Origin: a virus
Taxonomy: Duplodnaviria > Heunggongvirae > Uroviricota > Caudoviricetes
Strand: one strand, 5' to 3'
Length of the DNA stretch: 38,045 bases
Virus record (IMG/VR): IMGVR_UViG_2534681663_000013
Location: 1 to 38,045 of that record
Shown in pieces: positions 8,101 through 8,701 of this stretch. Position 1 is the stretch's first letter. Each line of letters begins with the position of its first letter. A model generated the notes under the pieces. The model was not told where the DNA came from and searched no databases. It was given only the letters and a program-made list of their open reading frames with translations. The position numbers and the translations under genes were made by a program.

Positions 8101-8701
8101 GATGGGCAATCTGGTGATCGACGCTGTAAAAGCCTCTCGACCGTTCGAGATGAACCCTAAGCGCTCTGCCGAGGTGAATGTACTGATGACTCGCATGGCG
8201 GCCGAAATGGGTCTGGGAGACGACCTGATCCGCCCAAGCATTGGCATTAAGCCGAAAATCATGGTCATTCTGGACAACGCGAACGGCAATGATGGGCGTA
8301 CCGGCTACTTCATGGAGAACGGCTACGACGACTTTAAGGCGAAGTTGCTTACTGCAGGCGATCTGCGCATGGGCGATCTCTACGTCACAGGCGTGTGCAA
8401 AAAGGGGAAGGACAAAGAGAAGGACTACACCAAAGACGAGATCGGTCAGTTCACCGACTTTATGCGTGAAGAGATCAATCTGGTGCGTCCGACCTATGTA
8501 CTGACGTGTGGCAGCCGGGCGACGTCGCTCTTCAACAACAAGAGCAAACCATCCGACCTGGTTGGACGCAAAGAGTATCTGCCGGAGCTGGATGCGACCG
8601 TTTTCTACGGATTTAACCCGAATATCCTTTACTTCCGACCGGAAGAAGGAGAGCGACTGGAGGCCATTCTGACTGATATTGCGGAGACGATAAATAAGTA
8701 A
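5195..8701 (+). CDS. dnaE: DNA polymerase III alpha subunit (DnaE-type, C-family polymerase) with C-terminal UDG-like domain
   Basis: 1168 aa with C-family polymerase signatures ([63 protein letters not shown]...HYPAEF). The last ~150 aa resemble a family-4 UDG fold. Confidence 0.9.
   Translation: [1168 protein letters not shown]

Follow-up and report, generated by a model that had tools for sequence, protein, structure and literature searches.

A C-family replicative polymerase with a uracil-DNA glycosylase (UDG) domain at its end has been on record since 2014, when Timinskas, Balvociute, Timinskas and Venclovas (NAR 2014; PMC3919608) described an extra polymerase, carried by certain Yersinia pestis and Salmonella enterica strains, in which the OB fold and the C-terminal domain (CTD) are replaced by a PF03167 UDG. 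In the A-family polymerases of the phages phiLo and YerA41, the fused UDG holds the 5′ template strand and excises deoxyuridine (dU) about 5 nucleotides (nt) ahead of the active site, and the E4 UDG of the Mpox holoenzyme is found at the same template-strand location (bioRxiv 10.1101/2025.03.26.645540). In SP15-like phages, such a PolA-UDG is coupled to a CTD for the bypass of apurinic/apyrimidinic (AP) sites, to PolX and to ligase (bioRxiv 10.1101/2025.03.26.645540). Here, we analysed the C-terminal tail of the DnaE polymerase encoded on a stretch of viral DNA of 38,045 nt (positions 1 to 38,045 of IMG/VR record IMGVR_UViG_2534681663_000013, Caudoviricetes), the whole of which is called the window in the following.

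The window belongs to a phage-plasmid of the SSU5 type. Its dnaE gene shows 98.8% nt identity to the dnaE of an E. coli plasmid and 95% to that of phage SSU5, it matches 798 PLSDB plasmid records (Klebsiella, Escherichia, Enterobacter, Yersinia and Salmonella), and 63 Yersinia and 49 Salmonella plasmid records carry it with at least 80% nt identity. The elements in PMC3919608 are of the pMT1/pHCM2/SSU5 type, and the 'DnaEX' architecture named there is that of the same protein family as the window DnaE. The DnaE-UDG fusion is not a discovery, and the surprise it offers is limited because it was already known. The account of 2014 was a domain-level remark; motif state, Fe-S (iron-sulfur) site, selection, clade size and function lie outside it. 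For gp048 of Rhizobium phage RHEph10, a GenBank note reads 'uracil-DNA glycosylase-like', and literature searches revealed no study of the function of the DnaE-UDG domain, of the SSU5 DnaE or of the motif state. Added here are a residue map of the domain, the clade-wide loss of its Asn and His with the acid kept, the lack of an Fe-S site in the window branch, strong purifying selection and a conserved gene neighbourhood.

The C-terminal domain of the phage-plasmid DnaE

The gene and its last domain have the following positions in the window (aa, amino acids; ORF, open reading frame):

5195..8701, + strand: dnaE coding sequence, phage-plasmid C-family DNA polymerase, 1168 aa plus stop, from the ORF list
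8234..8698, + strand: UDG-fold domain, core aa 1014-1168, from profile, PDB, AlphaFold2 (AF2), Foldseek, BFVD and phrog matches

Used as a single sequence, the tail matched the NCBIfam model TIGR00758 (UDG_fam4) with E=1.8e-8 over profile positions 48-170 of 173 and the Pfam UDG model (PF03167) with E=0.005, missing the curated cut-offs of both (34.3 vs 125.3 bits for TIGR00758, 17.3 vs 24.3 bits for PF03167). A phmmer search of the tail against the PDB gave solely family-4 UDGs as matches, and a family profile of 62 tails reached the Sulfolobus UDG (2e-19), TM0511 (1e-16), TthUDGA (6e-14) and UdgX (~1e-11). The AF2 model of aa 1009-1168 has a mean predicted local distance difference test score (pLDDT) of 94.6 and a predicted template modelling score (pTM) of 0.90, and the tail has the alpha/beta fold of UDGs with a central parallel sheet. 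Its BFVD matches are phage UDGs and PolA-UDG fusions, and phrog_13175 (146 aa, function not annotated) matches aa 1023-1168 with E=1.9e-97. When the tail of the full-length model was compared with UDG4 and UdgX in Foldseek, 183-193 columns were aligned, so that helix 988-1005 probably belongs to the domain as well. It is virtually certain that the last ~155-180 residues of DnaE are a homologue of the UDG fold derived from family 4.

A family-4-type UDG-like domain at the end of DnaE had already been proposed in the first-pass annotation, made by a model from the DNA letters, and TIGR00758, the 62-tail profile, AF2 and Foldseek agree with it. The peptides quoted there are present in the translation of 5195..8701, one of them beginning at K1021 (nt 8255). 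The region was placed correctly, apart from a start (8250) that precedes codon 1020 by 2 nt and so is a little out of frame. The fusion to a C-family polymerase likewise holds in Pfam, TIGR00594 and Foldseek comparisons, and profile and structure searches gave neither of the outcomes that the annotation had named as speaking against it, namely no similarity to the UDG fold or a tail of the OB/tau type.

The polymerase part shows the architecture PHP - Pol3 core - fingers - (HhH)2, found by Pfam with E-values of 1e-10 to 7e-73:

5210..5662, + strand: PHP domain, aa 6-156 (Pfam PF02811, E=1.4e-10), without the N-terminal HxH metal motif
6119..7417, + strand: polymerase core of palm, thumb and fingers, aa 309-741 (Pfam PF07733, E=6.6e-73; PF17657, E=2.2e-46), with the Pol III alpha core at aa 309-571 and the fingers at aa 574-741
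7778..8047, + strand: (HhH)2 / beta-binding-type domain, aa 862-951 (Pfam HHH_6, E=1.2e-16)

The whole protein matches phrog_405 (DNA polymerase) with E=0 and TIGR00594 with 645.8 bits (cut-off 434). Its full-length AF2 model (pLDDT 90.1, pTM 0.85) was matched by Foldseek to the Taq, Mtb and E. coli Pol III alpha structures with E-values of 1e-60 to 1e-51 (2hpi, E=5.5e-60). The catalytic Asp triad is present, with D418 and D420 in PDADLDF (aa 417) and D555 in AFDK (aa 553), and these residues are invariant in 38-39 of 39 full-length fused homologues; we take them to be the counterparts of E. coli D401/D403/D555. The HxH metal motif of the PHP domain is missing clade-wide, the family consensus at this place being L..RS.FS.GES (window 5195-5260), and DnaE probably has no PHP proofreading activity.

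Homology to cellular DnaE stops at aa 950 in phmmer alignments to Taq alpha (853-947), E. coli alpha (795-891) and Mtb DnaE1 (808-911). From aa 951 onward nothing was aligned to solved DnaE, and no Pfam or NCBIfam model of an OB fold or tau-binding CTD matched the protein, the last 218 residues of which are linker and UDG fold. The UDG-fold domain thus almost certainly stands in for the OB fold and the tau-binding domain of cellular DnaE. In the full-length model the tail has pLDDT values of 76-94, which together with the pTM of 0.85 suggests that the domain is docked on the polymerase and not floppy.

This architecture is typical of a large clade of phage DnaE proteins and not special to the element in the window. 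The clade came to light in an exhaustive HMMER search (1.84 billion representatives; E<=1e-3, clusters at 50% identity); a separate homologue search with the 168-aa tail had given only 9 close or fragmentary matches. At least 136 protein clusters carry the domain, mostly DnaE proteins of 1080-1140 aa with the domain at the C-terminus or C-terminal pieces of ~390 aa, and wherever the gene is not split into such pieces the domain is always at the C-terminus of DnaE. Members diverge to 25-35% identity and come from SSU5-like phage-plasmids, Pseudomonas Nickievirus, RHEph10-like phages of Rhizobium and many metagenomic phages; isolated phages with the fusion are Pseudomonas phage nickie and relatives and Rhizobium phage RHEph10 and relatives.

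The base pocket and its conservation

The pocket residues of family-4 UDGs were located in the tail as follows:

8270..8284, + strand: motif A equivalent L1026-D1027-N1028-A1029-N1030 (canonical GE[A/G]PG), from alignment to 4zbx, 1l9g and 1ui0 by hidden Markov models (HMM) and from the translation
8291..8293, + strand: D1033, equivalent of E47 of TthUDGa (thymine-excluding gate), six residues after the motif A acid
8390..8392, + strand: G1066, aligned with the uracil-recognising Asn (TthUDGa N80, UdgX N91), with Y-x-T-[A/S/G/T] aligned to (F/Y)-I-T-N
8615..8623, + strand: motif B equivalent N1141-P1142-N1143 (canonical HP[S/A]; the His is TthUDGa H155 and UdgX H178)

The motif A substitution had been noticed in the first-pass annotation, which read the replacement as DNANG; the substitution stands, and the string is off by one, the aligned residues being LDNAN. 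As the register shifts by one residue, the Glu is conservatively replaced by Asp, the Pro is replaced by Ala and both Gly are lost. The annotated change of HPS to NPN in motif B was recovered in two independent alignments, one by phmmer to TM0511 and one by profile to 4zbx. The lost uracil-binding Asn (G1066) and the lost Fe-S site are absent from that annotation, as are the earlier publication of the architecture and its spread across the phage clade. The four Fe-S cysteines are all missing: there is no upstream CxxC, K1070 occupies the Cys of the 'KC' pair and F1086 that of the helix, and the only cysteines of the tail, C1068 and C1105, are at non-ligand positions. The domain is acidic (pI 5.0, net charge -4; clade median pI 6.0), whereas canonical family-4 UDGs from the same search have pI values of 9.0-9.8. 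For TthUDGa E47, the role as a thymine-excluding gate is described in PMC9796141.

Residue conservation was counted over ~109 tails. At the motif A acid (1027), Asp is found in 95 of 109 tails, and the gate position 1033 is acidic family-wide (E in 70 and D in 30 of ~107). The Asn position (1066) holds A (31), S (29), G (24) or T (20) in 104 of 109 tails and Asn in 0 of 109. At the His position of motif B (1141), N occurs in 63, S in 30, T in 12 and H in 1 of ~109, while P1142 is kept in 107 of ~110. Y1063, E1093 and G1106 are invariant, and T1065, K1069, K1072, P1099, K1116, G1124, Y1128, D1133 and P1142 are at least 90% conserved. Judged from the sequence alignment, the best-conserved residues largely coincide with the loops that in real UDGs form the base pocket and the DNA-contact surface: D1027, P1029 (A1029 in the window) and E/D1033; Y1063-x-T1065 and K1069; G1106; and G1139-N-P1142.

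In three pairwise comparisons the ratio of nonsynonymous to synonymous substitution rates (dN/dS) of the UDG-fold domain was 0.03-0.09, compared to 0.02-0.16 for the polymerase core. Because of this constraint, the domain is very likely functional and under selection, and a decaying pseudo-domain was rejected on the same values.

Metal-site residues vary within the clade. Among the relatives of window 8195-8698, 37 of 102 tails combine an N-terminal CxxC with a His at the L1011 position and a Cys at the F1086 position, and they lack the 'KC' Cys; from the sequence, these residues suggest that the group has a Cys3-His metal or Fe-S site. In 46 of 102 tails, including that of the window, none of these CxxC, His or Cys residues is present.

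In the family-4-like enzyme DR0022, the substitutions E44A, N90A and H159A each abolish activity (PMC9796141), and in UdgX, uracil is hydrogen-bonded by N91 and H178, and the nucleophile is activated by E52 (PMC10359453). Of the three side chains required for uracil in family-4 enzymes, two, the Asn and the His, are gone across the aligned clade. The domain is probably not a canonical uracil excision enzyme. Motif loss alone is no proof of inactivity, since the polymerase-fused UDG domain of YerA41 excises dU despite its very divergent GYVN/MYSLM motifs (bioRxiv 10.1101/2025.03.26.645540). The substituted motifs are consistent with the 'non-catalytic or re-purposed' domain of the first-pass annotation. 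Its further suggestion of uracil or modified-base sensing found no support and is conjecture; the loss of the uracil-specific Asn argues against a uracil-specific reading.

Gene neighbourhood and other features of the window

Seven loci were compared with the window (L001, L003, L004, L006-L009), namely SSU5, nickie, RHEph10 and four metagenomic contigs. In all seven, the gene order is a CobT-like gene (vWA), a CobS-like gene (AAA_5, MoxR-type), 0-2 small ORFs and DnaE-UDG. The corresponding CobT-like/CobS-like region of the window is at 3456-5014. IS26-type and Tn3-family insertions have truncated the CobT-like gene, and the CobS-like gene and dnaE are intact. The features upstream of dnaE are:

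12-599: IS26-type transposase
639-2399 and 2544-3413: Tn3-family transposase fragments
3456-3683: remnant of the CobT-like gene, last 75 codons (CobT_C, E=8e-35)
5017-5220, + strand: Cys-rich ORF of 67 aa, phrog_6337, overlapping the dnaE start and corresponding to SSU5_051 in SSU5

Within and behind dnaE the following features were found:

7418..7777, + strand: hypervariable insert, aa 742-861, that in part forms a small beta-rich module, from dN/dS and the beta strands 743-789 of the full-length model
8090..8104, + strand: Q966-A-E-L-M970, within the clade motif R..DQ.EL[ML]PG; it may be a clamp-binding motif or a helix with a structural role
9358-9831, + strand: phrog_2058 ORF, 157 aa, function not annotated (HMM E=8e-30 to the family that follows DnaE-UDG)

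The insert has dN/dS values of 0.33-0.37 against SSU5 and 0.14 against a Klebsiella relative, compared to 0.02-0.16 for the core. An HNH/NUMOD4 homing-endonuclease ORF of 233 aa (L002, 3361-4062) lies inside the insert in Klebsiella phage-plasmids and splits dnaE at ~aa 787 into ORFs of 787 aa and 389 aa, which accounts for C-terminal pieces of ~390 aa in the clade. The linker motif is conserved among 40 full-length homologues (Q in 35, L in 32, M/L/I in 36). Its QAELM fits Q-x-x-L-[LMF] but sits in a helix predicted for 960-973, which is atypical for a clamp-binding peptide, and a clamp-binding role was reduced to a possibility when the full-length model placed the motif inside this helix.

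An ORF of ~130-170 aa lies 3′ of DnaE-UDG in six of the seven loci (nickie, RHEph10 and the four metagenomic contigs, not SSU5). Its relative in the window, the phrog_2058 ORF, is separated from dnaE by an AlpA-like regulator gene (8730-9290, - strand) and lies within a gp32/FEN/RecA/Mre11-Rad50 module. A role of this ORF as partner or inhibitor of the UDG-like domain was considered and rejected, as nothing ties it specifically to the UDG fold; phrog_2058 may resemble T4 UvsY. The homologue of SSU5_053, which follows dnaE in SSU5 and the Klebsiella relatives, is absent from the window. Longer downstream flanks of the loci carry gp32 (metagenomic loci only), a 5′-3′ exonuclease, RecA/UvsX, Mre11-Rad50 and ribonucleotide reductase. 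Within the ~10 kb flanks of the seven loci, to which this search was confined, no PolX or AP endonuclease was found, and ligase was found only in nickie.

Further along the window, a RecA/UvsX-like recombinase is split by a LAGLIDADG intein (10193-12532, + strand; Pfam RecA, Intein_splicing and LAGLIDADG_3). Type I restriction-modification cargo follows at 13215-21192 (+ strand) with hsdM, hsdS, a DUF4268 gene and hsdR. The last of these genes is interrupted by a stop codon in frame (19681-19683), which leaves ORFs of 502 aa and 498 aa, so that hsdR is probably inactive. An IS110-family transposase (21866-22942, + strand) and a Rep3-type plasmid replication initiator (23883-24938, - strand) were also identified.

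Possible roles of the domain and comparison with known systems

The reading we prefer, by analogy and with about an even chance of being right, is that of a re-purposed UDG fold which would handle template DNA or a flipped nucleotide beside the polymerase without canonical uracil removal. The replicase would have kept the domain as a module for handling DNA and no longer as a canonical uracil-DNA glycosylase. The domain probably contacts the single-stranded template or a flipped nucleotide near the polymerase, and if it engages the single-stranded DNA (ssDNA) template, it would thereby perform the ssDNA-contact job of the lost OB fold. Its position may be like that of the UDG modules at the template entry in the A-family polymerases of phiLo and YerA41 and in the poxvirus B-family holoenzyme. 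The wider claim that the domain acts on DNA at the fork, and not purely on a protein partner, has the balance slightly in its favour. Several points weigh against the preferred reading. An acidic domain (pI 5.0, net charge -4) is unexpected for a general DNA-binding module; the Asp, the acidic gate and the Asn/Ser/Thr at the His position would also suit a re-specified active glycosylase; and the UDG domain of YerA41 is active with very divergent motifs (bioRxiv 10.1101/2025.03.26.645540).

In a different reading, the domain would be an active read-ahead glycosylase like those of the SP15-like A-family phage polymerases: ahead of the C-family polymerase, template uracil or some other base would be flipped out and excised by non-canonical chemistry, with the Asp in motif A and the Asn/Ser/Thr in motif B as proposed active residues. 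There is a direct precedent in that the PolA-UDGs of phiLo and YerA41 excise dU ~5 nt ahead of the active site, and family 2 (MUG) enzymes function with an Asn in motif B, NPSGLS (bioRxiv 10.1101/2025.03.26.645540). The acid kept at the Glu position in 95 of 109 tails, the retained acidic gate E/D1033 and the pocket loops as the most conserved parts fit as well. Equally, DNA ligase and 5′-3′ exonuclease share the gene module in relatives, but ligase and FEN are expected there anyway for Okazaki-fragment processing. The residues argue in the other direction, with the Asn missing in 109 of 109 tails and the His in 108 of 109, and equivalent single substitutions kill the activity of the family-4-like DR0022. 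Pol III-type polymerases are blocked at abasic sites in the template. SP15-like phages possess PolX and ligase, whereas no PolX or AP endonuclease occurs within ~10 kb in the seven loci, and DnaE has no counterpart of the SP15-like bypass CTD. We therefore regard active excision as unlikely.

More doubtful still is the idea that the retained pocket is a re-specified base-reading site, in which the motif A acid and the gate would be kept, the floor enlarged by the change of Asn to Gly/Ala/Ser/Thr and the His replaced by Asn/Ser/Thr. If true, a whole clade of phage C-family replicases would scan the template ahead for features other than canonical uracil, be they lesions, modified bases or abasic sites, and the polymerase would stall or excise there, a read-ahead function that would be the first in a replicase of the bacterial type. 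Such polymerases may use a tau-independent replisome with the invariably adjacent CobS/CobT-like AAA+/vWA pair.

Instead of acting on DNA, the domain might be a protein-docking module in place of the tau-binding CTD that tethers the polymerase to a replisome partner from phage or host, with helicase/primase, single-stranded DNA-binding protein, the clamp or the adjacent CobS/CobT-like AAA+/vWA pair as candidates. Vaccinia D4 with A20 and those herpesvirus UNGs whose binding of replication factors does not require catalysis would be analogues, and this independence is reported for the UNG of MHV68. The location of the domain at the sequence position of the tau-binding region, its acidic overall charge, the standalone or split versions and the CobT-like and CobS-like genes immediately upstream of DnaE-UDG in all seven loci are in line with docking. 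As far as can be told from the sequence, conservation is focused in the pocket-forming loops and not on a distinct surface, which speaks against it, and no partner was identified. Transposon insertion has truncated the CobT-like gene of the window to 75 aa while dnaE is intact, so CobT is dispensable for plasmid carriage. Docking as the role of the domain appears improbable on balance.

That the domain is a vestige of a formerly active UDG, or no more than a structural leftover of one, without a specific function of its own, is very improbable: the loss of the canonical catalytic residues and of the Fe-S site would fit, but dN/dS is 0.03-0.09, and the domain is kept in at least 136 clusters at 25-35% identity with invariant and near-invariant residues, D1027 included. 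A tail that is a divergent OB or tau-binding domain and no UDG fold has practically no likelihood and is ruled out by the profile and structure searches, in which TIGR00758, the 62-tail profile, AF2 and Foldseek point to UDG, and by the end of DnaE homology at aa 950.

Knowing the function of the domain would reveal how the replisome of a tau-less DnaE is organised in SSU5-type phage-plasmids, elements of clinical relevance that carry resistance genes in Enterobacteriaceae. It would also show whether a glycosylase fold can become a non-catalytic module for DNA reading or docking. The motif-level description and the clade-wide conservation pattern mainly make this functional question testable.

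Compared with family 4 UDGs (T. maritima TM0511, T. thermophilus UDGA and S. tokodaii UDG) and with UdgX, the tail has the same fold and clear homology. Common to both are beta1 followed by motif A, an acid six residues further on, beta2 with (Y/F)-x-T...K, the LG loop of beta3 and the Pro of motif B. Unlike family 4, the tail has LDNAN, Gly for Asn, Asn for His and no [4Fe-4S] cysteines, it is acidic and not free-standing, and it scores below the cut-offs. In the cellular DnaE1 proteins, the OB fold and tau-binding region follow (HhH)2 at the same polypeptide position, and they show no sequence or fold similarity to the tail.

The PolA-UDG proteins of SP15-like, SPO1-like and other phages (phiLo, 9qhs, and YerA41; Missoury et al.) likewise have a UDG fold fused to a replicative polymerase. 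They are A-family enzymes with an N-terminal UDG and a C-terminal AP-bypass extension, whereas the window DnaE is a C-family enzyme with a C-terminal UDG fold; phiLo keeps LVGEAP/HSF, and phiLo and YerA41 excise dU, whereas the window DnaE has LDNAN and FNPN. In the poxvirus E9-A20-D4 complex (F8-A22-E4 in Mpox), a UDG-fold protein is an integral part of the viral replicase at the template entry, with a processivity role beyond repair. The window DnaE is the C-family counterpart to these UDG-bearing viral replicases, the A-family ones of phiLo and YerA41 and the B-family one of poxviruses. In DnaE, the UDG fold has displaced the two domains by which the cellular enzyme is joined to ssDNA and the clamp-loader/helicase, and it has discarded the residues of uracil excision.

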